A stretch of DNA of 42,342 nt from Thermoanaerobaculia bacterium (GTDB lineage: Bacteria; Acidobacteriota; Thermoanaerobaculia; Multivoradales; JAHEKO01): the NCBI GenBank assembly GCA_041575955.1, contig JBFGLX010000002.1, forward strand, positions 1 to 42,342. The letters are read 5' to 3'. Positions 10,363-41,100 of the stretch are shown here, piece after piece (within the stretch, counting starts at the first letter, position 1; the number at the start of each line of letters is the position of its first letter). The position numbers and the translations under genes are program-made. Below the pieces are notes generated by a model, which saw nothing but the letters and a program-made list of their open reading frames with translations, was not told the origin of the DNA and did not search any database.

Positions 10363-10390
10363 GAGACGCCTCGGCGCGGCCCTGAACCCG

Positions 10391-11535
<1,145 letters not shown>

Positions 11536-11539
<4 letters not shown>

Positions 11540-22470: not shown

Positions 22471-23451
22471 TCAGCCCGCACTCTCCTCGCTCAGAATGCG
22501 CTTCATGTACCTGCGCACTTCGCGGTTCTGCTTGAGGGCGGGCAGCGCTCGGCGCAGCGTCGTCGCCGCAGCGTCGAGCTGATCGGTCTCGAACAGGGCG
22601 ACCGAGAGGTAGAAGAGTTGCAGCGGCTGCTCCTGGATCAGCTCGCCGACCCGGTCGTAGTAGCGCACGGCATCCGCAAACGAGCCGCTGCGGGCGGCGA
22701 GAGCCGCGGCCACCCTCTGCATGTCCGAGCGCTCCGGGTAGCGATCGGCCAGCTCGCTCGCGCGCTCGAACCCCGCACGGAGCTTCTTGTCGCTCGCCTT
22801 GCCGGACGCCAGCCGATCGAGGCCGTCGAGGGCCGCCAGCTCCGTGGCCGTCGGCGCCGCGGCCGCACCCGGCTGGCGGCACTCGCCGTCGCCCGTCCAG
22901 GAGACGCAGAGCCGAGGCCGGGAGATGGGCTTGGCTTCGACCGGCCCGGCGGGGACCCGCTCGACCTCGACCGGCGTTGCCTGGACCGCGGCGACCTCGA
23001 CCGGGTCGACCTCGGCTGCCGGCTCGGCGGGCGCTGGCGCCGGTACGGCCCCGAGGATGGCGGTCCCCAGGTGGCTCCGCGCGGCGGTCTCGAGCTGGCC
23101 GCGCACCTCCGCTCCGAGCGCGGCGCTCGAGTAGGAGCGGAAGCGCGTCTCGAGCTCGGCCAGCCGGCCGTAGGAGTGCGCGAAGCCCTCGAGATCGCCG
23201 GCCGAGCTCTGGGTCAGGGCGAGGTGGGCGAGCGCCCGCGCCAGCTCCTCGGGCGTCTCGAGCAGCCCGAAGGCGGCGATCCGAAGCTCTTCCCGGGCGC
23301 GCGAATGGTCACCCCGCTCGTACGAGCGGACGCCCTCCTCGAGCAGCTGCCGGTAGAACGGATCGACCTCGGCGCCGAGCGGCAGGCACGACAGGAGAGT
23401 CACCGCCAGCCAGGCGATGCCGGTTCCGAGGGCGACTCGCGGTCCGCTCAC
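22471..23451 (-). CDS. Putative lipoprotein with TPR-like helical repeats
   Basis: The GTG at 23451 overlaps the Wzc stop (GTGA). The N-terminus GIAWLAVTLLSCLPLG carries the lipobox-like LLSC. Helical repeat regions flank a Pro/Ala/Val-rich linker. Confidence 0.6.
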   Translation of the reverse strand: MSGPRVALGTGIAWLAVTLLSCLPLGAEVDPFYRQLLEEGVRSYERGDHSRAREELRIAAFGLLETPEELARALAHLALTQSSAGDLEGFAHSYGRLAELETRFRSYSSAALGAEVRGQLETAARSHLGTAILGAVPAPAPAEPAAEVDPVEVAAVQATPVEVERVPAGPVEAKPISRPRLCVSWTGDGECRQPGAAAAPTATELAALDGLDRLASGKASDKKLRAGFERASELADRYPERSDMQRVAAALAARSGSFADAVRYYDRVGELIQEQPLQLFYLSVALFETDQLDAAATTLRRALPALKQNREVRRYMKRILSEESAG

Positions 23452-25736: not shown

Positions 25737-26581
25737 AAGAAGGACTCCTTGATCACGACGACGTCGCCGTCACGCATCTCGATGTCGGCGTCCTTGCCGG
25801 CGAGCAGCCGCTTGTAGTTGACCACGATCTCGTCGACCTGGCCGCCAGCCCGCTGGCGTCGGATCCGGATCTTGGCGGCCGCCCTGTCGGTGAGGCCGCC
25901 GGCCTTGGCGAGCACCGCCAGCAGGGTGACCGTTTCGCTGCTGCGAAAGGTCACCGCTCCGGGAGACTGGACCTCGCCCAGGCAGAAGACGTTCACGTCA
26001 ACCGCCACCGGCACGTTGATCAGGTCGGCGGCGAAGATCGGGATGTTGTAGCGGGCGTCGCCCCGCACCAGCAAAGAATCGAGGTCGATGGTCAGCTGGT
26101 CGGACAGGCCGTTCTGGGCGCGACGCAGGATGTGCACACGATCGCCGTGATTGCTGGCCAAGCCACCGGCCGCGGTCAGCGCCTCGAGTAGCGTCCAGCG
26201 GCCGGAGAGTTCCAGGTTGCCGGGCGAGTTGACCGCCCCGATCACCGAGGTCGGCTGAGAGCGGAACTCGCTGATGCGCACGGTCACCGAGGCCCTCTGT
26301 AGATAGGAGCGCTCGAGATCGGCCCTGATGCGGGCCGCCGCCTCCTGCTCGGTAAAGCCGCGCACGGAGAAACTACCCAGAAGTGGCAGGTTGATCGTGC
26401 CCTCTTCGGTGACTCGGAGGTCGACGTTGAGAGTCGGTTCTTCAAACACGCGAACTTCCAGGAGGTCCTTCGGCCCTATCCGGTAGCTGCTGGCCGCGGA
26501 AGGCTCTTGAGCGCCGGCCGGGACAGCCAGACAAGCAACCAGACTCGTGACGGCCAGGCCGCCTGCAATCCTCGCCATCAC
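25733..26581 (-). CDS. wza: Outer-membrane polysaccharide export protein (Wza-like; Poly_export + SLBB)
   Basis: Motifs are YRIGPKDLLEVRVFEEPTLNVDLRVTEEGTINLPLLGSFSVRGFTEQEAAARI plus SLBB-like GDRVHILR and DGDVVVIK. The N-terminus carries a lipobox-like LVAC. The start is the GTG at 26581 or the ATG at 26578. Confidence 0.88.
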   Translation of the reverse strand: MMARIAGGLAVTSLVACLAVPAGAQEPSAASSYRIGPKDLLEVRVFEEPTLNVDLRVTEEGTINLPLLGSFSVRGFTEQEAAARIRADLERSYLQRASVTVRISEFRSQPTSVIGAVNSPGNLELSGRWTLLEALTAAGGLASNHGDRVHILRRAQNGLSDQLTIDLDSLLVRGDARYNIPIFAADLINVPVAVDVNVFCLGEVQSPGAVTFRSSETVTLLAVLAKAGGLTDRAAAKIRIRRQRAGGQVDEIVVNYKRLLAGKDADIEMRDGDVVVIKESFF

Positions 26582-26597
26582 TCTGGCTCTAACAGTA

Positions 26598-26611
26598 GCC
26601 GAAATTTCGGC
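26598..26611. promoter_or_regulatory. 14-bp perfect palindrome in the AT-rich spacer between the OM-barrel gene and wza
   Basis: GCCGAAATTTCGGC is its own reverse complement. It lies in the 67-nt intercistronic gap 26582-26648. Confidence 0.25.
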
Positions 26612-26648
26612 GGATCTTTGTGAAGCACTCCACTGCCTAAAATGAGGG

Positions 26649-27926
26649 TTACCAGGGCTGGAAATCGCCCCCGAGCCGCAGTCCGAGATGGACGACCGCG
26701 ACCGAGCGGTCGAGACCCGGCTGGTTGGAGTCGAAATCGGTGCTCGAGGCGGCGAGGGTCAACAGCAGCCGCGGGGAGGGCTCGAAGTCGAGCTCACCGC
26801 CGAACGACGTAACGTCGTCTTCGCGGGACGTGACGGCTCGGGAGACGCTTCGGTAGCGGTTGGACCCGGACTCGCCGTAGGCGCGGACGTGGAAGCGGCG
26901 GCCCCAGGGAGTGCCGACCGAGAGTCCGACCCGATCTTCGGCAAAGAACTGATCGTCGCCCGCGATGGAATACACCAGGCTCCGCGCGCCGTAGGCGTCG
27001 AGCTGTAACCGATGCCCCGCCTGCCATCCGGCGCGCAGCGAGCCGGTCAGCTCCGAGAACGTCCGCCGGCTCGGGGCTTCGAACTCGACCTCCCGCTGAA
27101 CGGCCGAGAGCGCCAGACTGAGCCCCTCCCGGTGGTAGTCGATCTCCAACAGCGGCCCGAGGGCGGTGTTCGAGCGTCCGAACGGATCGAGCGGGAAGTC
27201 GGACTCGGAGCCTTCGGCGCCGAGGCCGATCCGTAGATCCGACCTGAATCGGTAGGCGAGCCCCAGCCGACCGATCGCTTCGTCCCGGTCGAGCAGCTCG
27301 ACCCGGATCGGAGAGCGGTTCCCCTGGTGCTCGAACTCGCGCGCCTCGATCGCGCCGAACAGCTCGAACGGTCCGCGGAAGTCGACGGCGGCTCGAATCG
27401 AGGCGCGGTGGGTCTGGATGTCGAACGGCACGAGCGCCTCCGCGTTGAGGAACCGCTGGCGCTCCTCGCGTCGAGCGTCGGCGATCAGCGTCAGGCGGTT
27501 GAAGAAGCCGAAGACGCCGGCGCCGTAGTTGAGCCGCTCTTCGCGGAGCTGATCGAGGTCTTGCCACCAGACGTACTCGGGCAGCAGGTAAGCCGACACG
27601 ATCACGTCGGGGCCGAAGTTCGAATACGCGACCAGCCCGGCGCCGACCGTGGCCGTCAGGTCGGAGATTCGTTCGCCGTCGTCGCTGGCGCCGAACACGT
27701 TGTCGTTGTAGCCGACGTCGCCCACCCTGAAGCGGGGGTCGAGCTTCAGCGCTCCCAGGGTCCAGCGGGCAGCTTCTACACCTGCCTCGACCCGCTCCCG
27801 GGTCGGCTTCTGGGGCACCCCAAGGCTGCCTGGAGCCGTGTACTGCGGGAACTGGGCGTCGACGCTCGCGGCGCACGACAGACCCACTATCAGCAACCGA
27901 GTTGCGACGGAAATATGCATGTCCAT
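26649..27926 (-). CDS. Outer-membrane beta-barrel protein (EpsL/BBP2-like)
   Basis: The ATG is at 27926. The signal peptide is MDMHISVATRLLIVGLSCAASVDA/QF. The body has alternating strand patterns and Gly/Asp/Arg turns, and the C-terminus ends in an aromatic residue (GGDFQPW). Its position upstream of wza-wzc fits this role. Confidence 0.7.
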   Translation of the reverse strand: MDMHISVATRLLIVGLSCAASVDAQFPQYTAPGSLGVPQKPTRERVEAGVEAARWTLGALKLDPRFRVGDVGYNDNVFGASDDGERISDLTATVGAGLVAYSNFGPDVIVSAYLLPEYVWWQDLDQLREERLNYGAGVFGFFNRLTLIADARREERQRFLNAEALVPFDIQTHRASIRAAVDFRGPFELFGAIEAREFEHQGNRSPIRVELLDRDEAIGRLGLAYRFRSDLRIGLGAEGSESDFPLDPFGRSNTALGPLLEIDYHREGLSLALSAVQREVEFEAPSRRTFSELTGSLRAGWQAGHRLQLDAYGARSLVYSIAGDDQFFAEDRVGLSVGTPWGRRFHVRAYGESGSNRYRSVSRAVTSREDDVTSFGGELDFEPSPRLLLTLAASSTDFDSNQPGLDRSVAVVHLGLRLGGDFQPW

Positions 27927-27961
27927 GGGATAATCGGGCTTCGGACCGTGCGCAGGCTGCA

Positions 27962-29353
27962 ATGATACCTCGCTTTCGCCAGAAACCAACCTGGGCGACC
28001 CTGGCCCTCGCGCTGCTCCTGATCTGGGCGCCGCTGCCGTTCGCCAGCGTCACCCCGGCCGGGCTGCTGGCGCTGCGCGTCGGCAGCTTCGCGGTGCTGG
28101 CGTTGGCGCTCTGGAGCGAAGGCGCCGACCTCCGGGGCCGCGGGATCGCGGCGCCGGTCGGCGCCCTGCTGACGATCGCCGCGATCGGCGTGCTCCAGGC
28201 GCTGCCGCTACCAGCCGAGGTGGTCGGGGTGCTGTCGCCGGAGCGGCTCGAGCTCGCCGCCGACGCGACGGCCGGGAGCGGCGCGCCGGCTTCGCTGTCG
28301 CTCTCGCTGGCGCCATCGCAGTCGCTGTCGACCGGGCTGACCTTCGTGGCTGTCGCCGCTGCGTTCGTCGCCGGCGCGCTCCTGGGCGGCGACCGCCAGG
28401 GTCGACGCTGGCTGCTCGGCTCGATCCTGGCGGCGGCTCTCTTTCAGCTGCTCTACGGTTTCCGGCATGTAGCGGCCGGATCGAGGTCGGTTTGGGGGGT
28501 CGAGGTGGCCCGCGAGGCATCGCGCCTGCGCGGCACGTTCGTCAATCCCGCACACGTCGCGCCCTACCTGGAGATGGCGCTGGCACTGGGCTTTGCGCTG
28601 GCGTGGTGGGCGCTCCGGCGGGCGCAGCGGAGCGAGCCGAGATGGGAATGGCGCCTGGCGCTGGCGATCGGGCCGATGCTGGTGTGGCTGGCCCTCTTCG
28701 CGGGCGTGGCGCTCACGCGGTCGCGGGCCGGCCTGCTCGCGGCCGCCGCGGCAACCCTGGTGCAGGGCTTCGTCTTGGCCGCGTACTACCGGCGCTGGCG
28801 CCTGTTGCCGGTCGGCTTGGTGGCGCTGGCCGGCGGCCTCGGTCTGGTGGCCTGGATCGGGCTCGAGAGGGGCCTGGGGCGGCTGCTCGGAACGTCTCTC
28901 CACAGCGTCACCACCAGTGCGAGGCTGGAGGTCTGGAGCGGCACCGCGGAGCTCTGGCGACGCTTTCCGGTCACGGGCATCGGTCTCGGCGGCTTCGAGA
29001 GCGCCTTCCCGATGGTCGAGCGCGAGAGCCTGGCCACCGTCAGCTGGCAGCATGCCCACAACGACTGGCTGGAGCTGCTGGCCACCGGCGGGGCGTTGGC
29101 GGTGATCGTCGCCCTGATCGGACTGGGCTTCCTGATCCGGCGACTCCAAGCCGCTCTGCTCTCGAGCCGCAGTCACGAGGCCGCGGCCGCGGCGGTCGGA
29201 GGCCTCGGAGCGCTAGCCGCGCTCGGCTTTCACGAGCTGCTCGACTTCGGCCTCACGCTGCCAGCCAACTCCTTTACCCTGGCGGTCCTGCTGGGCGTCG
29301 CCGTCGCGGGCGACTCCGGCCTGGCCCCGGTCCGCCCCGACGTCCGGCGCTAG
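27962..29353 (+). CDS. Wzy_C-domain membrane protein (O-antigen ligase / O-oligosaccharyltransferase / polymerase family)
   Basis: The ATG is at 27962. The protein has about 10-12 TM helices and the characteristic loop region ALTRSRAGLLAAAAATL ... GIGLGGFESAF ... HAHNDWLELLATGG. Confidence 0.8.
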   Translation: MIPRFRQKPTWATLALALLLIWAPLPFASVTPAGLLALRVGSFAVLALALWSEGADLRGRGIAAPVGALLTIAAIGVLQALPLPAEVVGVLSPERLELAADATAGSGAPASLSLSLAPSQSLSTGLTFVAVAAAFVAGALLGGDRQGRRWLLGSILAAALFQLLYGFRHVAAGSRSVWGVEVAREASRLRGTFVNPAHVAPYLEMALALGFALAWWALRRAQRSEPRWEWRLALAIGPMLVWLALFAGVALTRSRAGLLAAAAATLVQGFVLAAYYRRWRLLPVGLVALAGGLGLVAWIGLERGLGRLLGTSLHSVTTSARLEVWSGTAELWRRFPVTGIGLGGFESAFPMVERESLATVSWQHAHNDWLELLATGGALAVIVALIGLGFLIRRLQAALLSSRSHEAAAAAVGGLGALAALGFHELLDFGLTLPANSFTLAVLLGVAVAGDSGLAPVRPDVRR

Positions 29354-30991
29354 ACCCATCCGGGCCCCGGCCAGCGCCACCGCGACCGGCCGGACGGTGC
29401 CGCCGGTCTTGACGCGGAGCGTCAGGCGGTGGAGCTCGGGAGAGACCGGCAGCTCGAGATCGAAGGTCGCGGAGGACCGTGGCGACCGCTCGATCGCCAC
29501 CAGACGGCCGTCCCATTCGAGCTCGACCACCACGCCGTAGCGGGGGGCGTCGGTGATCTCGACCGAGAGCCCCGAGGCCGGGGCCGACGGCAGCAGGGTC
29601 AGGGAGAACTCCCGATCGCCGTGCTCCCACGCCGACGCCGGCCAGCTCGACCGGCCCAGCGCATCGAGCTGGGCGTCGGCGTGCCGCGTCGCGTCGGCGT
29701 CGCCCCGCGCGCGAGCGACCTCGCGCGCCGCGATCCAATAGCGCGGCCGGCGATGCCACGCTCTCGACAGCCGCGCCAGGGCGTCGCGGGCAGCACCGTC
29801 GCGGCCGGTGCGGGCGAGGTGCTCGGCCTTGAGCAGGTGGTACCCGGCCCAGGCCTCGCCCATTGCGAAGCGCCGCTCCAGGAGCTCGGCGCGGGGCAGG
29901 TCGCCGGCGATCAGGAACGTCAGCGCGCGCCGATCCGGTGGCGGGTCGGCGGCCAGTCGGGCAAGCCGGCTCAACACCGGCGCCTCGAAGGGACATTCGC
30001 GCAGCAGGCAGAGCTCGAGCGCCCATTCGAGCCAGGTGGCAAAGACATCTGCCGCCGCCTCGCCGACCGGCCCCGGCGGCAGGAGCTCCAGGCTGCGCTG
30101 CAGACGCGGCGCGAAGTCGGCGGCTCGCGGCGTCAGCGCGATCTCCCACAGCAGCCGGTCGCGGGCGCGCTGCCGCTCCCCGCCCTCGAGCTGCGACCGG
30201 ATCTCGTCGAGCGAGCGGTCGAGGTCGGCGCCGAGCGTCTCGTACCACTTTTGTCGGGCCGTGATGTAGAACTCCCAGTCTCTGGCTTCGGTGAAGATCT
30301 CCTGGAGGATTTTCCAGGCCCACGGACGTTCGGGCACCAGCGCCAGCGCCTGGCTGCGAGACGGCGCGACCCGCAGCCAGTCGCGGATGAGCAGCCGGTA
30401 GGTGTCGCGATCGTGAAACGCGCGGCTCATCAGGGCGGTCGCCGCCTCCCGGCGCTCGCCGGTGAGCGACGACCAGTTGCCCAGGTAGGCGGCGGTCAGG
30501 AAGCGGACCGGCCCGGTCTCGACCGGCGCGAGCCGGTGGGCCGCCAGCAGCGGCTCCTCCCAGAGCTCCGGCTCGGCCATCAGCCGCGCGTCGCGCTCGC
30601 GGTAGAGCTGCAGGTAGGTCGCCCCGCCCAGGACCATCGGCGCTTGCCACGACGCCGGGCGCTGCGGCCAGGCGGCCCGCGCGATGGCCGCCGACTCGGA
30701 CAGCCGCTGCGTGCCGCGCTCGACCTCCAGACGTGCCTGCTCGAGGTCGAGCTCCGCCATCCAGGCGCGATCGAGCTCGAGGCTGAGCAGGGCGCGCGCC
30801 ACCCGCAGCTCGGCATCGACCGGGTCGTAACGACGCCGGACCTCGGCGCGCAGCTCGGGGAAGCGCTGGTCCAGGGCGTGACGGTCGATGCGCGCGAGCG
30901 CCCGCTCGCGGCCCGCGACATGGTGCCGGAAGTCGAGTACGGCCAGGGTGATCGCGGACGCGGCCAGCGCGATGAGGACCGGGCGCTTCAA
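29213..30991 (-). CDS. Membrane-anchored protein of unknown function, translationally coupled to the lasso B1 gene
   Basis: 592-aa ORF. The TTG at 30991 overlaps the B1 stop (TTGA). It has an N-terminal TM (RPVLIALAASAITLAVL), a long helical Arg/Ala/Leu/Trp-rich region and a C-terminal beta-rich segment (FSLTLLPSAPASGLSVEITDAPRYGVVVELEWDGRLVAI). I recognised no family motif. Confidence 0.6.
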   Translation of the reverse strand: MKRPVLIALAASAITLAVLDFRHHVAGRERALARIDRHALDQRFPELRAEVRRRYDPVDAELRVARALLSLELDRAWMAELDLEQARLEVERGTQRLSESAAIARAAWPQRPASWQAPMVLGGATYLQLYRERDARLMAEPELWEEPLLAAHRLAPVETGPVRFLTAAYLGNWSSLTGERREAATALMSRAFHDRDTYRLLIRDWLRVAPSRSQALALVPERPWAWKILQEIFTEARDWEFYITARQKWYETLGADLDRSLDEIRSQLEGGERQRARDRLLWEIALTPRAADFAPRLQRSLELLPPGPVGEAAADVFATWLEWALELCLLRECPFEAPVLSRLARLAADPPPDRRALTFLIAGDLPRAELLERRFAMGEAWAGYHLLKAEHLARTGRDGAARDALARLSRAWHRRPRYWIAAREVARARGDADATRHADAQLDALGRSSWPASAWEHGDREFSLTLLPSAPASGLSVEITDAPRYGVVVELEWDGRLVAIERSPRSSATFDLELPVSPELHRLTLRVKTGGTVRPVAVALAGARMGLAPDVGADRGQAGVARDGDAQQDRQGKGVGWQREAEVEQLVKAERG

Positions 30992-31278
30992 GGCCGGCTC
31001 GGGGCGGTCAGGTGGCGGTCGAGGTCCCTGAGCAGCTCCTCGAGATCCCGCCTGGCGGTGTCGCGATCGACCTCGAACGTCTCGATCAGGCGTTGCTCGA
31101 GAAGCGCTCGACGGGTCGCTCCGCCAGCGATCTGATCGAGCACGAACATGCCGGTGCGGTTGAGGCTCAAGACTCTCATGTCGGCCGTGTCGACCACCAC
31201 TCCGCTGCCGTCGGCGAGCGTCTTGTGCCGGTACCGAGCCGAGCCGAGCAGCGCGGAGAGCGCCTCGATCGGTCTCAT
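30988..31278 (-). CDS. PqqD-family RiPP recognition element protein (lasso peptide B1)
   Basis: 96 codons starting at the ATG at 31278, which overlaps the B2 stop (ATGA). The sequence is MRPIEALSALLGSARYRHKTLADGSGVVVDTADMRVLSLNRTGMFVLDQIAGGATRRALLEQRLIETFEVDRDTARRDLEELLRDL. This gives three beta-strands followed by a winged-helix-like pattern, typical of PqqD. Confidence 0.8.
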   Translation of the reverse strand: MRPIEALSALLGSARYRHKTLADGSGVVVDTADMRVLSLNRTGMFVLDQIAGGATRRALLEQRLIETFEVDRDTARRDLEELLRDLDRHLTAPSRP

Positions 31279-31718
31279 CGGGCGCGCTCGAGCGGCAAGG
31301 CCACGACCTCCTCGAAGGCGACGTCGTCCGGCTCGGCCGGCGTCAGCGCCCGATCCGCCACGCTCAACCAGGCGTGGCCGTCGAGCAGGTCTCCGGTCGC
31401 CCACGGGCGGCGAAAGCCGATCCGCACGGCGACCCCGGGCGTGTCCGCCACCAGGGCGCCGGCGACGAGCGAGCGCAGCAGGCAGGTGTCGCGTCGTCCG
31501 GCCAGCAGCCGGCCGAGCCGCGCCGTGCGGGCCGCGGCCCAGACCGCGTCCGCGGGGGCGACCCGCTCGGGCAGGCCTCTCGCCGCCAGCAGCCGGTCGC
31601 GAGTCTCGGTCCAGCCGGCGCCACCGGCCAGGCGCTGGGCCGTCGTATGCAGGCGCCAGGCGCTTGCCAGCAGGTGGGCCCGGTGGAGCAGCCGGCGAAC
31701 GCCACGGTCGTGAGTCAT
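31275..31718 (-). CDS. Lasso peptide biosynthesis B2 protein (transglutaminase-like leader peptidase)
   Basis: 147 aa starting at the ATG at 31718. The catalytic Cys motif is RRDTCLLRSLVAGALV, followed by GVAVRIGF and the His motif LDGHAWLSV. This matches the McjB C-terminal domain (Transglut_core3) pattern. Confidence 0.85.
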   Translation of the reverse strand: MTHDRGVRRLLHRAHLLASAWRLHTTAQRLAGGAGWTETRDRLLAARGLPERVAPADAVWAAARTARLGRLLAGRRDTCLLRSLVAGALVADTPGVAVRIGFRRPWATGDLLDGHAWLSVADRALTPAEPDDVAFEEVVALPLERAR

Positions 31719-31728
31719 CGGACGGATC

Positions 31729-32709
31729 TTACGGCAGCGAGTCGGCGACGGCTGCGAGACATTCCTCGGTCGACTCGAGGAGCGACCGGCCGAGGCGGAG
31801 CTCGATCGCCGGCAGCTCCTCGGCGAAGCGGGTCATGATATCGAACAGCCGGCGACGGCGATCGGCGAAGCGGTCGTCGGTCACGTAGAGCGCGGAGGTG
31901 CCGCGCAACAGAGCGGCGAGCGCCTCGGCCTGGGCGAGCGGCCGTGCCACCGGGCCTTCGCCATCGGACAGGCGCTCGAGCAGGATCAGGCAGTCGGGCT
32001 CGGTCGAAAGCCGGAAGGCCCCTGGAGAGCGTTCACGGTCGATTCGGATGCGTCCATCGGCCGCCTCCTGGCTCGCGAGGCCGCGGGCGTGAAGGGCTGG
32101 CAAAAGCGCTGCCGAGCCCGGACGCAGCCAGAGGCTGCGGCGCGCCGCTCGCACCAGTGGCCGGCGGTCGGCCCGTCCCAGGATCAAGCTGTCGTCGGAG
32201 ATCACCCGGCCGCCGCAGGCCGCCACCGCCGCCGCCACCGTCGACTTGCCCGAGCCGGTGTCGCCGATGAGCAGCAGCCGGCGGCCGCGCAGCTCGACCG
32301 CGGCGGCGTGCAGGAAGCACTCGCCGCCGGCGGCAAGCGCGTCGCCCAGGGCGGCCTCGACCAGCGGCTCGAGGCAGGCCGGCCGCTCGAGCGCGCCGGC
32401 GACGAGCTCGACAGTCGATTCCTCGGTGCCGGGGGAGAGCAGCACCCGGCCGCAGGGGTTGCGCAGCACGCCGGATCCCGCCTCGGGCCGCCACTCGACC
32501 GGTTGAACCGCGTCACCGGCGGCCGGCGGGGGTCCGGCGGCCGCGCGCCACCGAATGAGAAAGGATCCGCCACCGGAGGTCCCGGCCGCGAGCTCGGCCA
32601 TCCATCTGCCGACCAGGAGGTCGGGCACCGCCGACGGCGCGCTCTCGAGCGCCAGGACGCCGGCCAGCGGCGGGAAGCGCAGATACACGATCGAGTCGCC
32701 GGCGTCCAC
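31729..32709 (-). CDS. HPr kinase-like serine kinase (HprK-related, RiPP-associated)
   Basis: 326 aa starting at the GTG at 32709. The P-loop is LLLIGDTGSGKSTVAAAVAACGGRVISDDS. The size and position, next to the B2 and B1 genes, match lasso-associated kinases. Confidence 0.75.
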   Translation of the reverse strand: MDAGDSIVYLRFPPLAGVLALESAPSAVPDLLVGRWMAELAAGTSGGGSFLIRWRAAAGPPPAAGDAVQPVEWRPEAGSGVLRNPCGRVLLSPGTEESTVELVAGALERPACLEPLVEAALGDALAAGGECFLHAAAVELRGRRLLLIGDTGSGKSTVAAAVAACGGRVISDDSLILGRADRRPLVRAARRSLWLRPGSAALLPALHARGLASQEAADGRIRIDRERSPGAFRLSTEPDCLILLERLSDGEGPVARPLAQAEALAALLRGTSALYVTDDRFADRRRRLFDIMTRFAEELPAIELRLGRSLLESTEECLAAVADSLP

Positions 32710-32825
32710 GGCCCGAGTCTACCGACCGCCCGCCGCGCCCGGATGGGGTGCCCGAGCCCTCCGGACGGCGGAAGGAGTCGGGATAGAGTCTCCTTGTCAG
32801 CGGCCGAGCCGTCGACGCCAGCCGG

Positions 32826-34625
32826 ATGAGTGCTATCGCCGCCATCTTCCGCCGCGACCGCGGTCCGGTCTCGGAGAGAGCGCTCGCCGCCCTGGCGGAT
32901 CGTCTCGCCCATCGAGGGCCGGACGGGCGCGACTTGGCGATCGAAGGCGCGGCCGGGATCGCCCACCTGCACGCCTGGGTGACGCCCGAGGAGATCGGCG
33001 AGCGGCAGCCGCTGCGCTCGGGCGGCCGGCTTCTGGCCTTCGACGGCCGGATCGACAACCGCGCCGAGTTGATCACCGCCCTGGAGCTCGAGCGCTCCGA
33101 TCGCTCGCCCTCCGACGCCGAGCTGGCCCTGGCGGCGCACGAGGCGTGGGGAGAGGGGTTCTGCCGCCGGCTCGTCGGTCCCTACGCCCTGGCGCTCCTC
33201 GAGCCCGCCGCCCGGCGCGGGTTCCTGGCCCGCGATCCTCTCGGCGATCGCACCCTCTTTTACGCCGAGCTGGGCGCGGAGATCGTGATCTCGTCGGAGG
33301 AGGCGAGCCTGCTCGGGCATCCGGGCGTCTCCGTGGAGCTCGACGAGTCGCGGTTGGCGCACTACTTCGCGGCCGCCGTGCCGGGCGACGGGTCGACCTT
33401 CTTCCGCGGCGTGACCGAGCTCTTGCCCGGCACCCTGCTGAGAATCGGCGAGGGCCCGGTCACCGCGGAACGGCTCTGGTCGCCGCCGGCGGACGGCCGG
33501 GAAGCGATTCGGGACGGAACCGCACTGGCCGAGGAATACCGCGAGCTTCTGACGCTCGCGGTCGAGAGCCGGCTGCGCTCGCCGGCGCCGGCCGCGGTGC
33601 TGATGAGCGGCGGCCTCGATTCGACTTCGGTCGCCGCGCTGGCGGCCGAGTCGGTCGACCGCCGGGCCGAAGCCCAAAGGCCGCGGTCGATCTCCTGGGT
33701 TTTCGACTCGACCCCCGGCTGCGACGAACGGGAGTTCATCCGGCCGGTGGTCGAGCGGTGGCGCCTGGATGCGCGCGAGTTTCGCGGCGACGAGCTCGGG
33801 CCGCTGCCCGACGGTCGCGAGCTCTGCCTCAACCCCAGCAGCCCGGAGGAGAACCCCTACCGGCGTCTCAAGTCCCGCGCCTACTCCGAAGCGGTGAGCG
33901 CGGGCAGCAGCGTCCTGCTCAGTGGCGGCTCGGCGGACGCCCTCTATACCGGATACGAACGCTGGTTCGCGGATCTGATCGCCGCCGGCAGACCGGTCGC
34001 GGCCGCCGGCGAGCTGCTCGCCGACCTGTGGCGGTTCGGGGCGCGCTCCGGTTTGCGGAGCGCCGGCTTCGGCCGCTGGTGGCGGGCGCTCCGACCACGA
34101 CGCCCGCCACCCGAGTGGCTGACACCTTGGGCGCGGGGGGTGCTCGAGCGCCAGGCGTCGCGGATCGAGCCGGCGGACGCGCGGCTGCTCGCCGCCGCCG
34201 GCCCGCGCCCCGCCCGCGGCATCTCGCTCGAAATCTTCTACGCCGGCCGCTGCGGCGTCGACCTCCGCCATCCGTATCGCGACCTCCGGCTGGTCGAGTT
34301 CATGCTCTCGCTGCCGGCCTGGGAGCTCTATCGAAACGGGAGGTTCAAGGAGATCGCCCGGCGGGCGCTCGTGGGGCTTCTGCCGGAGGCGGTGCGAACG
34401 CGCACCCGGAGGACGTCGCTCACGCCGCTGTTCGATCGGGCGCTGCGCGGACCGAATCGAGCCGCCTGGGAGGGATTGCTCCGGTCGAGCGGCGCGCTCT
34501 GGCCGCGCTTCGTGAGCAGCGCGTGGGTCGAGGCGGCGTTGAATCGATCCGCGGGTCCGGCCGGCGACGTGGCTCTCTGGAACTGCATGAGCTTCGAGCT
34601 CTGGCGCCGCCGCTTCGGCCGCTGA
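32826..34625 (+). CDS. Asparagine synthetase B-like lasso peptide cyclase (C protein)
   Basis: 599 aa starting at the ATG at 32826. The N-terminus MSAIAAIF lacks the catalytic Cys2 of glutamine-hydrolysing AsnB enzymes. The PP-loop is AVLMSGGLDSTSVAAL. The gene is divergent from kinase-B2-B1 and upstream of the precursor. Confidence 0.85.
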   Translation: MSAIAAIFRRDRGPVSERALAALADRLAHRGPDGRDLAIEGAAGIAHLHAWVTPEEIGERQPLRSGGRLLAFDGRIDNRAELITALELERSDRSPSDAELALAAHEAWGEGFCRRLVGPYALALLEPAARRGFLARDPLGDRTLFYAELGAEIVISSEEASLLGHPGVSVELDESRLAHYFAAAVPGDGSTFFRGVTELLPGTLLRIGEGPVTAERLWSPPADGREAIRDGTALAEEYRELLTLAVESRLRSPAPAAVLMSGGLDSTSVAALAAESVDRRAEAQRPRSISWVFDSTPGCDEREFIRPVVERWRLDAREFRGDELGPLPDGRELCLNPSSPEENPYRRLKSRAYSEAVSAGSSVLLSGGSADALYTGYERWFADLIAAGRPVAAAGELLADLWRFGARSGLRSAGFGRWWRALRPRRPPPEWLTPWARGVLERQASRIEPADARLLAAAGPRPARGISLEIFYAGRCGVDLRHPYRDLRLVEFMLSLPAWELYRNGRFKEIARRALVGLLPEAVRTRTRRTSLTPLFDRALRGPNRAAWEGLLRSSGALWPRFVSSAWVEAALNRSAGPAGDVALWNCMSFELWRRRFGR

Positions 34626-34832
34626 GGTCGGAAAGCGCGGCGCGGAACCGGGGGTGCTCGTCTTTTCGACTCGCCGCAATTCTGGCTCTCGAGCCGCTTC
34701 GCGCGCCACGGTTGTGGAGCAGTTCACTGTTTGTCGAGCGCGAGTTCCTAAAAATGGTGAGCAGGGTGCGTTTGTCTTCCGTCAGCAGAGACGTCATGTA
34801 CAATTCCGTTCAGCTTGAAGAGAGAGCTACGT
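34626..34832 (+). promoter_or_regulatory. AT-enriched spacer upstream of the precursor gene; probable promoter / 5' UTR
   Basis: My hand count over 34741-34832 gives about 49% G+C, against visibly much higher flanks. Candidate -10 hexamers are TAAAAT (34749-34754) and TACAAT (34799-34804). Neither has a well-spaced -35 element. A purine-rich GAAGAGAGAG precedes the ATG. Confidence 0.3.
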
Positions 34833-35018
34833 ATGAGACCGATCGACGCCGGCAAGAGCGCGGACGGCCAAGAGCGTCGCGGGCGCCCGCCGCGCCTCCC
34901 CTACGAGAAGCCGGAGATCGTCGAGCGCGGTCGCCTGGTCGAAGTGGCCCTCGGTGGCAGCCCCGGAGCGGGCGACAGCGGCTCCGGCGCGTTCGTCGAA
35001 GACCTCCCGACCGGCTAA
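34833..35018 (+). CDS. Putative lasso peptide precursor (A peptide), 61 aa
   Basis: The sequence is MRPIDAGKSADGQERRGRPPRLPYEKPEIVERGRLVEVALGGSPGAGDSGSGAFVEDLPTG. The leader segment YEKPEIVERGRLVEVAL fits the YxxPxLx3Gx5Tx spacing. The predicted core has Gly1 and Asp8. The gene lies in an AT-enriched spacer after the cyclase. A TTG at 34815 is an alternative start. Confidence 0.7.
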   Translation: MRPIDAGKSADGQERRGRPPRLPYEKPEIVERGRLVEVALGGSPGAGDSGSGAFVEDLPTG

Positions 35019-35056
35019 CCCCACCGGGAGCGACGACCTACCACTAGCAGATGAGT

Positions 35057-35079
35057 GGCCGGGGGCAGTGTGCCCGGCC
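35057..35079 (+). promoter_or_regulatory. Stem-loop between the precursor gene and the adhesin gene
   Basis: GGCCGGG (35057-35063) pairs perfectly with CCCGGCC (35073-35079) around a 9-nt loop. There is no following T-run, so it is not a canonical intrinsic terminator. Confidence 0.35.
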
Positions 35080-35175: not shown

Positions 35176-38100
35176 ATGACGCGTCGGTTCGCTGCTGGGC
35201 GCCTCGCCGCGAGCGCGGCAGCCCTATTCGCGGCCCTGTCGCTGCTGCCCGGGGGCGCCTCCGCCCTGCCGCCGCAGCCCGAGGCCTACTGCTTCGCGGT
35301 TGCGGACTCCGGCGACAACCTGGTCTTTATCAATAAGGATGGTGACGGCTTCGTCGACATGGGACCGACGGGCACCGGGGCGATGGAGGCGATTGCTTTC
35401 AACCCGGACGACGGCAACCTCTACGCCGTCAACGGCGACGACTTCGGCTTCCTGGACTACGACGACTCCTTCGACGGCGACGGCAACGACTCGGAGTTCA
35501 TCCAGATCTCCGCCGACGTCGGGAGCTGCACCCTGCCGGGCGGCGCCCCGCTCGCCATCAACGACATCGATGGCCTGCAGTTCGACGTCACCCGCACCGA
35601 CGCATCGACCGGCACGTTCGTCCTCTGGGCTACCGCCCGCGACGGCGACGGCTCCGCTCCCGACGACGTCCTGTTCCAGATCGACCCGGCCACCGGCCTC
35701 GTGGACACCACGCCGACGCCCGGCTTCACCGGCGGCGCCACCTGCGTGCGCATCAGCGGCCCCGGGATCAACGTCGACGTCGACGACGTCGCCGCCAAGC
35801 CGACCGACGGCATCATCTACGTGGTCAACAACATCGGTGGCGGCACCGACCAGCTGGTCGAGGTCGATCCGGTGACCGGGCTCGGTACCGTCGTCGGCTT
35901 CTTCGACAACACCAACCCGCCGCCGGCGACCGTCTCGGACATGGAGGGCATGTCGTTCGGCGCCGACGGTACCCTGCACGGCACCACCGGCGCCTCGGGG
36001 ACCAGCCCGAACGACTTCTGGACCATCGGCACGCCCGACGGCGAGACCACCCTGATCGCGCCCTTCCCGTCCCTGGGCGACTACGAGGCGGTGGCCTGCC
36101 TGACCGACAACCTGATCACCGGGACCGTGTTCTTCGACATCGACGAGGACGGCGTGTACGAGCCGGCCGACGGCGATTCGGGCTTCACCGGCGCCACCGT
36201 CCGCGTCTACATCGACAACAACGACGACGGCCTCGTCGACGCCGGCGACTCGCTGCTCTGCGACAATCCGGGCGGCGGCTTCAATCTGGCCTGTCCGGTC
36301 ACCGACCCGAACGGCGACTGGGTGTTTCCGGTCGGCCAGGGCAACTTCGTGATGGAAGTCGACGTGGCGACCCTGCCGGCGGGCGCGACCCTCACCACCG
36401 ACAACGCCGAAGAGGCCGACTTCGGAGTGCTCGACTTCGGTCTCGAGGACCCGGACAACGACTACGGTTTCATCCTGCCGGAGGGGTCGGGAGACCTCGA
36501 CATCACCAAGACCTCCGACGCCGGCGGCCCGGTGGTCCAGGGACAGACCCTGACCTACACCCTCACGGTCCAGAACAACAGCGGCGCGAACCACACCGGC
36601 ATCAGGGTCACCGACGTCCTGCCCGCGGGCGTGACCTACGTGCCCCAGAGCACCGTCGTCACCGGCCCGCTCGAGCTCTACGCGCTCGATGAGTTCGGCG
36701 CCGCCCTCTACAGCAACCGCGACGGGCCCCATCCCTGGGCGATCGACTGGCTGGAGACCAACGACGACGGCTCGCCGACCACCGGCAGCATCGACGTCGC
36801 CGCCGGCGAGCTGCGCTTCACCGGCTCGGGCGGGGCGCCGCTGCGCCAGATCGAGCGCCAGGTGGATCTCACCGGCGCCTCGGCGGCGGTGCTGCTGTTC
36901 GATTGGCGCTGCCAGGGCGACATGGAAGCGGCCCAGGACTTCGTGTTCGTCGAGGTCTCGGGCAACGGCGGGGCGAGCTACACGACCCTCGACACCCGGG
37001 AGGGTGAGGTCCACATGTGTCTCGAGCCCGGCGACGCGGACTCCGGCTCGGTCGCCTACGACATCTCGGCCTTCGCGGCCGTCAACACGCGGATCCGGCT
37101 CGGGTTCACGATCAGCGCCACCGACGAGTTCTTCTTCGTCGACAACCTGGAAGTGCGCTTCGCCGAGACCTTCCGCGACCAGTTCGGCACGGTCTCCTAC
37201 GCCAACAACGACGGCTCGCTCTCGTGGGCCACGAGCTGGCTGGAGATCGGCGAGGCCGACGGCCCCGGCTCGGGCGACATCCAGGTCACCGCGGACGAGG
37301 ACTTCGGCGCGCTGCAGGTCCTGCGTATCCGCGACAACGACAACGGCGGCGAGGGGGTCCAGCGGGAGGCCGACCTGTCGCCCTATCAGACGGCGACCCT
37401 TTCGTTCGCCTATCGCCGCAGCGACCTGGACGACCTCAACGACTTCGTGACCGTCGAGGTCTCCGGCGACGGCGGCGCCAACTGGGTCGAGCTCGACCGC
37501 TTCGTGGGTCCCGCCGCGGACGATCCGGCGTACACCACGATCAGCTACGACATCTCGGACTTCGCCTCGCCCACTACCCGGGTCCGCTTCCTGAGCTCGC
37601 CGAGCCTGGGCGGCAACGACGAGGTCTACTTCGACGACGTGACGATCAGCGCCCGTGCCCCGATCGCCGGCACCAAGGACAACGATCCGGGCGGCGCCAA
37701 TCCCCCCGACCTGGTGGACGGGGTGCCGCCCGGCCTGGTGGAGCCGGCCGACGGCTTCCTGCTCCCCGACGGCAACAGTCTGACCGTGACCTTCCAGGTG
37801 ACGGTGGACAACCCGCTGACGCCCTTTGCCGCAAGCCTGCTCAACCTGGCGGTGGTCAACAGCACCGAAAGCAGCGTGCCGGAGGTCGCCCGCCACGTCG
37901 ATCCGGTGGTGAGCGGTGCGCTCGGCGACCGGGTCTGGCTCGACGTCGACGGCGATGGCGTGCAGGACGTCGGCGAGCCCGGGCTGCCGAACGTCGAGGT
38001 CACCCTGTTCGACGCCGGCGCCGACGGCCTGCCGGGGGGCGGCGACGACACCGCTCTGGCCACGGCCCTGACCGGCATGAACGGCGAATACCTGTTCGAG

Positions 38101-41100
38101 CATCTGGCTCCCGGCCCCTACTTCGTCGACGTCACCGACGCCACGGTGCCGGCGGGCCTCGTCCTGGCGCCGGGCAGCACCGATCCGAGCGCGGTCTTCA
38201 CCGTCTCCCAGAGCGAGATTTTCCTGACCGCCGACTTCGGTTACGCCAACGCCAGCGCCGCGAGCGCGATCATCGGCGACTACCTCTGGAACGACCTCGA
38301 CCGCGACGGCATCCAGGATCCGGGCGAGATCGGCATCGGCGGGGTCACGCTCGAGCTGGTCGATCTCTCGACCGGCCTGACCGTGGGCGCCCCGGTCACC
38401 ACCACGGCCGACGGCAGGTACCTGTTCACCGGGGTCCCGCCCGGCGAGTACGAGGTGCGGGTGACCGACACCGGCTCGGTGCTCTCCGGCTCCTCGCCGA
38501 CGGTCGGTCCGCAGAGCGAGGGCGGCTTCGTCAGCGCGCCGGTGACCGTCATCGCCGGCCAGGTGGTCGACGATCTCGACTTCGGCTTCGCGTCCGACGC
38601 CTGTCTGCCGCGGATCGACTTCGACGTCGACGCGCTCGGTAACCCGATCGTTGCGGGTCAGTTCCTGGACGACGAGTGGGCGGCCTGGGGAGTCACCCTC
38701 TCTGTTGTGGCCAACCCCGACGGCGACCCGTCAACCCCGCCTGACCCGGGCCCGCTCATGGCCTTCGACAGCTTCAACCCGACCGGCGCCGACGACGATC
38801 TCGGCTCGCCAAACGAGACCTGCACGCCCGCCGGCCCGGGTCAGGGCGCCGACGGCGAAGTGGGCATGCCGGGCGAGAACTGCACGTTCCAAAGCAACCT
38901 GCTGATCATCAGCGAGGATGGCGACCAGAGCGACCCCGACGACTCCGGCTTCGGCGGCACGATCACCTTCGACTTCGCCGCCGACGTCGAGATCGAGGCG
39001 GTCGAGTTTCTCGACGCCGAGAACACTTCCGACAGCGTCGAGCTGTTCGACCAGTTCTCGACCTCGATCTTCTTCAGCAACCTGACGGCCCCCGGCGATA
39101 ACGCCTACGAGCTGCTACCGGTGGACACCGCCGGCGCGCGCCAGATGGTGGTCACCTTCCCGTCCAGCGGCGCCATCGCCGCGGTCGACTTCTGCCTGGG
39201 CAGCCTGCGCGACAAGGTCTGGCTGGACGCCGACGGCGACGGCTTCTTCGACATTCTCGGTCCGGACGGCCTGCCGGGCACCGGCGACGAGGAGACGCCG
39301 ATCGCCGGCGTGACCGTCGATCTCTTGAACGCCTCCGGCGAGGTGATCGCCACCACCATCACCGACGCCGGCGGCAACATCCGGTTCGACGGCCTCGACG
39401 ACGGCGACTACACGATCGTGATCACCGACACCGACGGCGTGCTGAACCCCTACGGCGGCACCACCACGCCCGCCCAGAACGAGCAGCTCGCGGTGACGAT
39501 CACCGGCGGCGTCGACGTGGTCGGGGTGAACTTCGGCTACAACTCCCCGGGCACGATCGGCGACACGGTGTTCAACGATCCGGACGGCGACGGCATCCAG
39601 GATCCGGGCGAGGCCGGGATCGCCGGTGTGAAGGTCGAGCTCTGGCGGGACGCCGACGGCAACGGCATCTTCGACAACACGGTCGACATCCTGGTCGGCT
39701 CGCAGATGACCGCCGCGGACGGCAGCTACCTCTACTCCGGCCTGACCCGCGGCACCTACTTCGCCAGCATCGACGACTCCCAGCCCGTGCTCGCCGGCTA
39801 CACGCCGACCACGAACGACGAGGAGACCGGCCCCAACGCTCCGGGGACCCAGATCGAGACGCCGCTGGTCGCACTGGGCGACTCGTTCCTGGACGCCGAC
39901 TTCGGCTACAGGAACGCCACCCTGGCCGACATCTCGGGCACGGTCTTCGAGGACCTCGACCGCGACGGCGTCGAGGAGGCGGGCGAAGGCGGTTTCGGCG
40001 GCGTCACGGTCGAGCTGCGCGACTGCTCGGGCAACGTGCTGGCCACGGCCACGACCGACGCCATGGGCGACTACTCCTTCCCCGACCTGCCCGCGGGCTG
40101 CTACCGGGTGGCGGTGACCGACGATTTCGGGGTGCTGGTCGGCTACGCGCTCACCAGCGGTCTCGACACCATCGAGGTGAACCTCGCGGCGAGCGACGTC
40201 GGCGACGTCGACTTCGGCTACGTTCGCGATCCTGGTGGCGCCTCGATCGGCGACGCCGTCTGGCTCGACGAGAACGCCGACGGCATCCAGAGCGCCGCCG
40301 AGGCGGGGCTCTCGGGCGTCACGCTGGATCTCTGGCTCGACGACGGCGACGGCATCCTCGACACCAGCGGCGCCACCGACACGCTGATCGCGACCACCAT
40401 CACCGACGCCAACGGCGAATACCTGTTCCCGGGTCTCGCCGCCGGGAAGTACTTCGTGGATCTCGACACGACCACGCTGCCGGCGAACCTGACCGAGACG
40501 GCCTATCCGGGCGGCTTCGACCCCGCGGCCCTGACCGCGATCAGCGAGGGCGAGAACTACGACCAGGCCGACTTCGGCTACCTGCCCGACGCCGGCACCG
40601 CGGTGCTCGGCGACCGGGTCTGGTACGACACCGACGGCGACGGCCTCCAGGACCCGGGCGAGATCGGCATCGGGGGCGTCGACATCCAGCTCTCGGGCCC
40701 GTCGTGCACGCCGGGGCTGTGCACGGTGACCACCGGACCCGACGGCACCTGGCTGGCGACCGGGCTGGCGCCGGGCGAGTACATCGTCCACGTCGACACC
40801 TCGACGCTGCCGGCCGGGTACAACACGACGCCCACCAACAACGGCGGCGACGACACCTACACGATCACGGTGGCGGCGGGCGACCTCTTCGCCCACCTCG
40901 ACTTCGGCTTCGACGGCGGCTCGACCGGCTCGATCGGCAACTTCGTCTGGTTCGACGACGACGGCGACGGCGTCGTCACCGCGGGCGAGATCGGCGTCGA
41001 GGGGGTGACCATCAACCTGGTGCGCGACACCAACGGCAACGGCGTGATCGACCCCGGCGAGCCGATCCTCGACACCGTCCGCACCGACGCGGCGGGCGGC

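Follow-up and report, generated by a model that had tools for sequence, protein, structure and literature searches.

A predicted kinase-containing split-B lasso peptide pathway in a Thermoanaerobaculia bacterium, its C25-ended giant adhesin and its polysaccharide module

The closest described relatives of the lasso peptide locus analyzed here, which lies in a 42,342-nt stretch of DNA from a Thermoanaerobaculia bacterium (assembly GCA_041575955.1, contig JBFGLX010000002.1, positions 1 to 42,342 of the forward strand; hereafter the window), are clusters that pair a split B protein with an HprK-like kinase. For the paeninodin, ThcoK and SyanK kinases, the phosphorylation target is the Ser at the C-terminus of the linear precursor, and an N (nucleotidyltransferase) gene and sulfotransferase genes are known in paeninodin/pseudomycoidin-like clusters (PMC8498205). 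The bsf cluster of Bradymonas sediminis FA350 encodes a kinase, BsfK, that phosphorylates core Ser3 and is stimulated by B1; the core of its precursor BsfA, GTSGNEVDGSTPADRGNNPGD, follows the pattern G1-x-S3-x4-D8 and is preceded by Ile at position −2 (Duan et al. 2023, PMC10368454). According to the same study, Thr(−2) is normally important for processing by the B enzymes, precursors with Ile, Val or Ala at this position have been reported, and the bsf cluster gave no mature lasso peptide in five hosts. The kinase LppK of the linear polyphosphorylated peptides (LPPs) also phosphorylates core Ser3 and does not accept an S3T substitution; a biofilm role for LPP clusters has been put forward by the authors of that work as speculation (PMC13381572).

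The best overall explanation of the window, and a likely one, is a complete split-B lasso pathway, tailored by a kinase and tied to a giant C25-ended adhesin and a polysaccharide module. That the pathway with its kinase is genuine and selectively maintained is, to judge from the genes and their conservation, very probable. An initial annotation of the window had proposed such a cluster of a precursor, B1, B2, an AsnB-type cyclase and an HprK-like kinase, and this proposal is supported by protein families, by conserved residues and by conservation of the precursor. The G+C content of ~71% across the window gives rise to many spurious open reading frames (ORFs), and genes were therefore chosen by third-position G+C (GC3). 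The five ORFs were found where the annotation had placed them, on the same strands (Table 1), and the GC3 of all cluster genes is typical for coding sequence. The proteins of the window match exactly in several near-identical contigs of metagenome-assembled genomes (MAGs) and in sequencing runs.

The precursor, A, consists of a leader of 40 residues (residues 1-40; 34833-34952) that ends in YEKPEIVERGRLVEVAL, with Ala at −2, and a core of 21 residues (residues 41-61; 34953-35015), GGSPGAGDSGSGAFVEDLPTG. The full product reads MRPIDAGKSADGQERRGRPPRLPYEKPEIVERGRLVEVAL, then the cleavage site, then GGSPGAGDSGSGAFVEDLPTG; an alternative TTG start of the ORF lies at 34815. The leader motif, Y24-x2-P27-x-I29-x3-G33-x5-A39-x-G41, is of the YxxPxI type and has canonical spacing. 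Relative to the cleavage site, which is placed by the lasso leader spacing rule of Duan et al. (PMC10368454), the motif residues are Tyr-17, Pro-14, Ile-12 and Gly-8, followed by G1 and D8 of the core, and a G1-D8 macrolactam is predicted. The model lasso_leader_L3 matches the precursor at E = 0.055 only. Eight further close precursors were obtained from a protein search and from neighboring loci, and in the resulting nine-member family Y24, P27, G33, A39 (that is, Ala(−2)), G41, P44, G45, D48 and S49 are invariant. The close family follows the pattern YEKPEIV[DE]RGxLxxxAL and then GG[ST]PGxGDSG[GS]G, and its members end in G, I, V, V, T, V, V, P and V, with no Ser among them. Across the whole window the motif was found once, and neither a further precursor nor another leader motif of the lasso type turned up, while a metagenome scan with the precursor alignment returned 285 pattern matches, of which none was confirmed.

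More distant precursors, about 18 in number, have cores of the form G[GTS]S[PG]Gxx[DE]S and mostly lie directly downstream of the cyclase gene (related loci carry L numbers). Examples are a leader ending in DIAL followed by GGSPGRGDSGATFIQQPP, one ending in ELTH followed by GGSPGTGDSGSPGTRRPV and one ending in GLTL followed by GTSPGVPDSGVGGGEFNLNP. Position 8 remains Asp or Glu throughout, except in L119 (Asn8), and a terminal Ser occurs in L102 only. Where cyclases are at least ~34% identical to that of the window, nearly all loci have a precursor adjoining the cyclase gene. Within this cyclase clade, the ring is near-invariant, G[GT]SPGxGDS, and the tail varies. Position −2 is Thr in most precursors of the wider family; Ala is confined to the clade of the window and a few others, and is therefore taken as derived within a family that is otherwise canonical. 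As a separate observation, the core stretch G-D-S-G-G-[G]-x-[LF]-[VT] resembles GDSGGP, the active-site motif of trypsin-family serine proteases. This likeness is probably coincidental and is remarked on since the partner protein of the cluster is a peptidase and a trypsin-like protein opens the window. The latter (7-2955, plus strand; at least 982 aa, cut by the window start) carries a VWA domain after its trypsin-like peptidase domain and is, as far as could be told, unrelated to the lasso locus.

The processing enzymes were assigned by family models and by conserved residues. B1 matches PF05402 (E = 3.1e-11, 43.9 bits against a cut-off of 23.4) and the NCBIfam model lasso_PqqD_Strm (2.1e-9). 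The Cys79-His115 pair of B2 is invariant and lines up with the Cys and His of BsfB2; an Asp that would complete the triad was not located. B2 scores 23.7 bits against Transglut_core3 (PF13471; E = 4.6e-5), 2.3 bits below the cut-off of 26, and 2.9e-4 against NCBIfam lasso_biosyn_B2, and its orthologs in L007, L090 and L177 have precomputed Transglut_core3 matches. Cyclase C matches Asn_synthase at 5e-33. Its NCBIfam scores are 290 bits for lass_lactam_cya (cut-off 525), 199 for asn_synth_AEB and 148 for the XrtA/exopolysaccharide (EPS) amidotransferase model TIGR03108 (cut-off 817), all three below the cut-offs of the respective models. Five cyclase orthologs begin with MSA[IFL]AAI and hence are without the Cys2 nucleophile needed for glutamine hydrolysis. 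With 148 bits against the required 817 and an N-terminus of MSA, the protein does not qualify as an EPS/PEP-CTERM amidotransferase. Its relatives at 38-44% identity come from MAGs named Thermoanaerobaculia/Acidobacteria, Anaerolineae and ‘Deltaproteobacteria’. The initial annotation had described B1 as PqqD-like, B2 as an McjB-type peptidase, and C as a divergent AsnB homolog with an SGGLDS loop and Ser-Ala instead of Cys2. All of these descriptions hold, and Cys2 is missing in all orthologs of C. C does not group with the EPS amidotransferases, as judged by the comparison of NCBIfam scores, which stands in for a tree.

The sequence matches of kinase K are weak (Hpr_kinase_C, 1.8e-4; HprK_rel_A, 1.3e-8; HprK/P of L. 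casei, 1.1e-3). Among 11 homologs, His134, the P-loop G149-x4-GKST157 and D172-D173 are invariant, and an AlphaFold2 (AF2) model with a predicted local distance difference test (pLDDT) score of 89.5 matches PEPCK (E = 1e-10, TM-score 0.5) and HprK/P (E = 3e-7). This agrees with the earlier description of the gene as an HprK-type P-loop protein. The accompanying analogy with paeninodin-type clusters breaks down at its central feature: the kinase stands, and the C-terminal Ser on which paeninodin kinases act is present in 0/9 close members. Since the close family precursors never end in Ser, C-terminal phosphorylation of the paeninodin type cannot apply; a terminal Ser is seen in the precursors predicted for the distant Firmicute and Sphingomonadales kinase loci that were fetched. 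A contig scan of the GTDB species representatives with the kinase alignment gave, among the matches listed, none above 34% identity across the matched region; those listed are distant HprK-like kinases that mostly share a generic P-loop pattern. Several NCBI MAGs hold near relatives of the window kinase, and the lineage may be missing or masked in the GTDB representative collection.

Position 3 of the core is a conserved Ser, replaced by Thr in L007, and recreates the G1-x-S3 pattern of BsfA. Ser3 is favored as the site of K because BsfK and LppK both act on Ser3, and on this analogy its phosphorylation by K is proposed tentatively, as something close to an even call. It is unlikely, though worth serious weight, that K instead modifies Ser9, the residue following the ring-forming Asp8, or that its target is not the precursor at all but, for example, a sugar or the adhesin. 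No family member departs from Ser at position 9, position 3 can be either Ser or Thr, and LppK refuses S3T, yet the L007 precursor has Thr3. In addition, pairwise BLAST places K at equal distance from BsfK and from the Firmicute and sphingomonad kinases (~27-35% identity over the P-loop core), so that the phosphorylation site is not transferable by homology. In favor of Ser3, on the other hand, both kinases with a known non-C-terminal site use this residue, BsfA shares the G1-x-S3…D8 arrangement, and K lies in one operon with B2 and with B1, the component that stimulates BsfK.

By analogy with the characterized systems, B1 would bind the YxxPxI leader of the 61-aa precursor, and K would phosphorylate the still-linear peptide, most likely at Ser/Thr3 of the core, with Ser9 as the alternative. 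B2 would then cleave after Ala(−2)-Leu(−1), and the cyclase would adenylate Asp8 and close an 8-residue Gly1-Asp8 lactam ring around the tail. Judging from the surrounding genes, the peptide most likely belongs to the cell surface or to a biofilm and is produced along with the adhesin and the polysaccharide; a stand-alone antibiotic with a dedicated exporter is less likely.

The giant adhesin encoded next to the precursor is, through its C-terminal Peptidase_C25 domain, a conserved partner of the cyclase/precursor family. Its gene is cut by the window end, and in a near-identical contig (L001) the adhesin runs to 3134 aa and carries the Peptidase_C25 domain at its C-terminus. Scanning metagenome data with a cyclase-ortholog alignment yielded 80 related loci; C25 domains were counted with ad hoc hidden Markov models (HMMs) made from the alignments of this analysis, in loci with at least 1 kb of flank. 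Peptidase_C25 is present in 17/21 cyclase-clade loci with usable flank, and in 12 of those 17 the domain is followed on the same strand, after 3-445 nt, by the cyclase start. The controls, 134 loci (1.89 Mb) centered on other HprK-like kinases or on more distant lasso cyclases, contain C25 in three cases. These three are all neighborhoods of a kinase and a recognition element (RRE) of the type found in RiPP (ribosomally synthesized, post-translationally modified peptide) pathways: two are from Anaerolineae and lack a cyclase, and one has the order C25-K-B1-C.

Elsewhere in the family, the usual order is C25 protein-C-A-K-B1-B2 (L105) or C25-C-A-K (L103, L109). In L097, L100 and L116, as in the adhesin, C25 forms the C-terminal end of a protein (1,695-3,291 aa) that bears DUF11 and SdrD_B repeats, and the catalytic His (GHS) and Cys (QWGCW) of C25 are invariant. 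The smallest arrangement, L100 (4901-12200), comprises only the 1,695-aa DUF11/SdrD_B/C25 protein, the cyclase and the precursor, flanked by glycolysis genes (GAPDH, PGK, TIM), secG, a Na/H exchanger gene and dnaX. The adhesin sequence was searched for motifs resembling the ring, and one unrelated GDSG was the sole result. In the searchable literature, nothing was found that ties lasso clusters to C25/gingipain-like adhesins. A related side observation concerns two Anaerolineae MAG loci, L031 (8060-13563) and L079 (389-5960), which combine a PqqD-like RRE, an HprK-like kinase and a C25 protein with no cyclase; they could represent a linear phosphorylated-peptide system that uses the C25 peptidase.

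The genes of the locus are arranged in two divergent groups (Table 1). On the minus strand, K, B2, B1 and X follow each other nearly without gaps: K and B2 are 10 nt apart, the stop of B2 and the start of B1 overlap by 4 nt (ATGA), and the stop of B1 and the TTG start of X overlap by 4 nt (TTGA). Gene X is thus a fourth minus-strand gene, outside the cluster as first annotated. Both 4-nt overlaps recur in L007, L008 and L177, and by this arrangement K-B2-B1 appear translationally coupled to gene X of the polysaccharide module. On the plus strand, C lies 116 nt from K and is followed by A and, after a gap of 158 nt, by the adhesin; because the adhesin ATG is directly followed by a signal peptide, the precursor and adhesin genes do not overlap. 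The K-C intergenic region presumably holds promoters in both directions. A scan of 32600-35300 for the sigma-70 consensus found none, a single terminator-like site in the same interval lies inside C and is not above chance, and the RNA fold of the A-adhesin spacer has a z-score of −0.2. These scans and the folding are uninformative, and no transcription units can be assigned from them.

Table 1. Features of the lasso locus and its surroundings (window coordinates)
Feature	Position	Strand	Remarks
Sulfotransferase-domain gene in EPS cluster	~6752..7650	-	start approximate: internal start in ORF 6752-8239
NTP_transf_5 nucleotidyltransferase in EPS cluster	9313..10431	-	accessory-enzyme candidate
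Wzc chain-length/tyrosine kinase	23448-25736	-	polysaccharide export module
Wza/Poly_export	25733-26581	-	polysaccharide export module
EpsL-like outer-membrane barrel	26649-27989	-	polysaccharide export module (23448..27989)
Wzy_C-domain membrane protein (O-antigen ligase/polymerase-like)	27902..29353	+	convergent with X
Gene X, 592 aa, TTG start	29213..30991	-	membrane tetratricopeptide repeat (TPR) protein of Wzy_C module
B1, PqqD-like RiPP recognition element, 96 aa	30988..31278	-	PF05402
B2, transglutaminase-like leader peptidase, 147 aa, Cys79/His115	31275..31718	-	
K, HprK/PEPCK-fold P-loop kinase, 326 aa, GDTGSGKST at residues 149-157	31729..32709	-	
K-C divergent intergenic region, 116 nt	32710..32825	.	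between K GTG 32709 and C ATG 32826
C, lasso cyclase, AsnB-like lactam synthetase, 599 aa, SGGLDS PP-loop, no Cys2	32826..34625	+	
A, precursor, 61 aa	34833..35018	+	ORF with purine-rich stretch before ATG; conserved in relatives
Giant secreted adhesin: signal peptide, DUF11/CLIPPER, 10 SdrD_B repeats	35176..42342	+	cut by window end

Gene X has no sequence match in Pfam, NCBIfam or PDB. An exhaustive HMMER search gave a family of 374 representatives at 50% clustering, nearly all of 540-570 aa and matched over almost their entire length. The AF2 model of X (pLDDT 93.3) has a transmembrane helix at the N-terminus, then a TPR-like solenoid (47-445) and a C-terminal beta-sandwich (461-540), and for this model Foldseek returned generic TPR matches only (TM 0.14-0.22). 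The C-terminal ~50 aa are specific to the window, missing in the orthologs and disordered in the model; they create a 141-nt overlap with the convergent Wzy_C gene (29213-29353) and are probably due to a shifted stop. A convergent Wzy_C gene follows X in 8/8 distinct loci with downstream DNA recovered. Distant X homologs (28-42% identity), found on four contigs, are followed by a convergent Wzy_C in all three that extend past X, and an EpsL-like barrel comes next in two of those three. The upstream side of X is variable: one locus has a divergent VanZ-like gene and a PqqD gene with no kinase or cyclase, and another has a divergent NTP_transf_5 gene. Based on this synteny, X appears to be a companion of Wzy_C, and K-B2-B1 would have been fused onto the operon of X in the clade of the window. 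X (window 29213-30991; loci L092-L096) stands for a large uncharacterized family of membrane TPR proteins that accompany Wzy_C. A 383-aa gene at the equivalent place in a Sphingomicrobium locus (L044) was considered as a relative of X, and no relation was found.

That same Sphingomicrobium locus (2330-13124) has K, a lasso-type C and a PqqD gene beside Wza/Wzc/Wzy_C, while L025 has only K beside Wza, Wzc and Wzy_C. A Sphingomonas locus (L056) combines K, C, a PqqD gene and a predicted precursor whose last residue is Ser, all beside a Wzy_C gene. The embedding of kinase-type lasso genes among glycan genes is therefore a recurring theme, and one that has already been noticed. In the window, the NTP_transf_5 and sulfotransferase genes flank the Wzx flippase, 21-25 kb from the lasso genes, and by analogy with known clusters they are possible accessory enzymes for the lasso peptide; in many sphingomonad loci, NTP_transf_5 directly follows the HprK-like kinase. 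As to the polysaccharide itself, three consecutive genes (10391-12797, minus strand) encode a DegT-type aminotransferase, a PglD-like acetyltransferase and a Bac_transf initiating transferase, which suggests that the first sugar of the window polysaccharide is a bacillosamine-type, di-N-acetylated amino sugar.

Contigs with kinases 45-57% and cyclases 55-64% identical to those of the window show the same gene order: flippase, Wzc, Wza, EpsL-like barrel and Wzy_C; X, B1, B2 and K; and, divergently, C, A and the adhesin, the last being 3,100-3,300 aa long. This layout was found in four further lineages (L007, L008/L009, L177 and L090), of which L177 is part of a 5.1-Mb contig and L090 has no detected precursor. 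L090 (kinase 45%, cyclase 61% identical) retains the order adhesin-C<>K-B2-B1-X. Some syntenic loci have a separate 1,060-aa Peptidase_C25 protein between C and A, and where this extra gene is inserted A adjoins the adhesin and not C. The conservation bears on several features that the initial annotation had singled out. The divergence of C-A from kinase-B2-B1 is real, and it amounts to a clade-specific rearrangement, the relatives being colinear (C25 protein-C-A-K-B1-B2). The view that the cluster is wedged between glycan genes and an adhesin has to be given up, as the neighborhood is conserved in the four further lineages and is not accidental. Embedding among glycan and adhesin genes is present as described, and for the glycan genes its presentation as unusual does not stand, given that embedding in polysaccharide loci was already noted in Bacilli (PMC13381572). 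The reported lack of an ABC exporter and an isopeptidase applies to all scanned ORFs of the 42 kb.

Several points weigh against the picture of a complete, kinase-tailored and C25-linked pathway. The lasso peptide is here a product predicted from genes, and B2, K and the cyclase each fall below the curated cut-offs of their models. Ala occupies −2 in place of the Thr that B enzymes usually need, no exporter was found within the window, and with only Phe/Leu14 and Glu16 as plug candidates on an 8-membered ring, stable threading is not assured. In L090, no precursor ORF was found in the 273-nt adhesin-C gap (7608-7881) or in the 12.4 kb retrieved, and a precursor search of the DNA retrieved for L091 likewise gave none. 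L100 has no K, B1 or B2 within 10 kb, so that a minimal C25-C-A partnership needs no neighboring kinase. Finally, the loci were gathered by cyclase similarity and include the near-duplicates L107/L108 and L121/L122, because of which the C25 counts overstate the number of independent lineages. The subthreshold scores of the cyclase, B2 and K would fit a locus with no lasso pathway at all, in which the AsnB homolog is a polysaccharide amidotransferase, the remaining genes form an EPS-associated ‘HPr-rel-A’-type system and the 61-codon ORF arose by chance. The secondary match of the cyclase to the XrtA/PEP-CTERM amidotransferase (148 bits), the X-family genes that adjoin PqqD or NTP_transf_5 genes in cyclase-free EPS loci and the many sphingomonad K-NTP_transf_5 pairs without a cyclase point the same way. 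This account is nevertheless highly improbable: the lasso-cyclase model scores about twice as high as the EPS amidotransferase model, Cys2 is missing in every cyclase ortholog, and the small ORF, whose motif occurs a single time in the window, is conserved at the protein level in >25 loci with exact lasso leader spacing and a Gly1/Asp8 core. Only slightly less improbable is a cluster that is genuine yet silent or decayed, with Ala(−2) and the missing exporter as marks of a non-productive remnant. The usual importance of Thr(−2) and the five hosts in which the related bsf cluster gave no mature product (both PMC10368454) agree with decay, as does the exporter not found in the window. Against decay, Ala(−2) is invariant and all catalytic residues are kept although the enzymes have diverged to 45-63% identity, GC3 remains coding-like in all genes, and several MAGs and sequencing runs contain copies that are near-identical. 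A maintained split-B pathway with a kinase remains the preferred reading.

A further possibility goes beyond the co-regulation of surface genes and takes the lasso peptide as a dedicated partner of the C25 domain, either as a cognate inhibitor or regulator of this cysteine peptidase or as a substrate that is processed, or attached to the adhesin or the polysaccharide, in a PorU-like, sortase-type reaction. The surface neighborhood would then reflect a physical interaction. The C25 and cyclase genes are tightly adjacent, often within 100 nt and on one strand, even where the cyclases are only 34-51% identical to that of the window, and L100 keeps the giant C25 protein, C and A alone among housekeeping genes. 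Where a separate C25 protein stands between C and A (L008, L091, L177), A adjoins the adhesin, and in the cyclase-free Anaerolineae loci the RRE and kinase are still paired with a C25 protein. A near-invariant ring with a variable tail would suit a conserved binding partner, and the C25 catalytic His and Cys are retained. Lasso peptides that inhibit enzymes are known. The evidence for this idea is, however, purely genomic, and biofilm co-regulation explains the adjacency of C25 equally well. As for a sortase-type reaction, the core offers no transpeptidation acceptor, as it lacks both Lys and a free N-terminal amine; the Ala-Leu|Gly cleavage site is not of the Arg/Lys type, and with B2 present in the window C25 is not needed as a leader peptidase. 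A dedicated partnership with C25 is on balance a possibility to be held with considerable doubt. The same doubt attaches to the broader proposal that the widely distributed lasso family G[GT]SPGxGDS might be a molecular partner of giant C25-ended surface proteins, and that it possibly bears a phospho-glycan made by way of the adjoining polysaccharide genes.

To our knowledge, the natural functions of most lasso peptides are not known. The linkage to C25 adhesins, which recurs in several lineages and in differing gene orders, provides a concrete lead on such a function, and it raises the question of whether the peptide interacts with the C25 adhesin and whether it is phospho-glycosylated. If true, the C25 partnership would give lasso peptides a physiological role in the building of the cell surface or biofilm matrix and not in antibiosis, and the purpose of lasso peptides would become directly testable in the G[GT]SPGxGDS family. 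The locus also widens the known variation of lasso systems by Ala(−2) leaders and by a kinase clade without a C-terminal Ser substrate.

Among characterized systems, the window cluster is closest in logic to bsf (Duan et al. 2023, PMC10368454). Both have (i) split B1/B2 proteins, an AsnB-type cyclase and an HprK-like kinase, (ii) a 21-residue core with G1, S3 and D8 and (iii) a residue other than Thr at −2, which is Ile in bsf and Ala here. The internal Ser3, on which BsfK acts, is by analogy the favored site of K, and in neither system has a mature product been seen. K is 34% identical to BsfK over 114 residues and B2 is 38% identical to BsfB2 over 68. Unlike the window, in which genes of neither type adjoin the lasso genes and a search for D-type ABC genes gave none, the bsf cluster includes D (ABC) and N genes, and a linkage to a C25 adhesin or to EPS genes is not described for it. 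The paeninodin/pseudomycoidin clusters of Firmicutes and the SyanK-type clusters of Sphingomonadales share the split B and the HprK-like kinase, as far as the accounts of Zhu et al. 2016 and Zyubko et al. 2019 are relayed in PMC8498205, and their kinase acts on the linear precursor, as is proposed for K. Nucleotidyltransferase and sulfotransferase genes are frequent in paeninodin-type clusters, whereas in the window both types are 21-25 kb away; these clusters also carry an ABC exporter, of which the scanned window ORFs contain none, and the Ser found at the C-terminus of their precursors is missing in all nine close family members. Without a C-terminal Ser, the defining feature of that type, and without adjacent D and N genes, the window cluster is not to be filed as paeninodin-type.

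Two other systems resemble the locus in its surroundings. The LPP/paeninodin-like clusters in capsular loci of Bacilli (Nat Commun 2026, PMC13381572) likewise pair an RRE with an HprK-like kinase and are embedded among polysaccharide genes. Their kinase phosphorylates Ser3. The LPPs have no cyclase and rely on a SipW-like signal peptidase; they are confined to Bacillota and have no giant C25 adhesin, whereas the lasso genes of the window appear coupled translationally to X. PorU, a C25-family sortase of the type IX secretion system (Gorasia et al. 2015, PMC4560394), shares with the present system a C25 domain, surface display and surface polysaccharide. Unlike PorU, C25 is here the C-terminal domain of the adhesin itself; T9SS genes and a CTD signal were not seen, no search aimed at them having been made, and the resemblance is a lead only. 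Kinase-bearing split-B lasso clusters, Ser3 phosphorylation, non-Thr(−2) leaders and, in Bacilli, polysaccharide embedding have thus already been published. The chemistry of the window cluster is expected, and its interesting part is the partnership with the C25 adhesin together with the operon fusion to a gene of the Wzy_C module.

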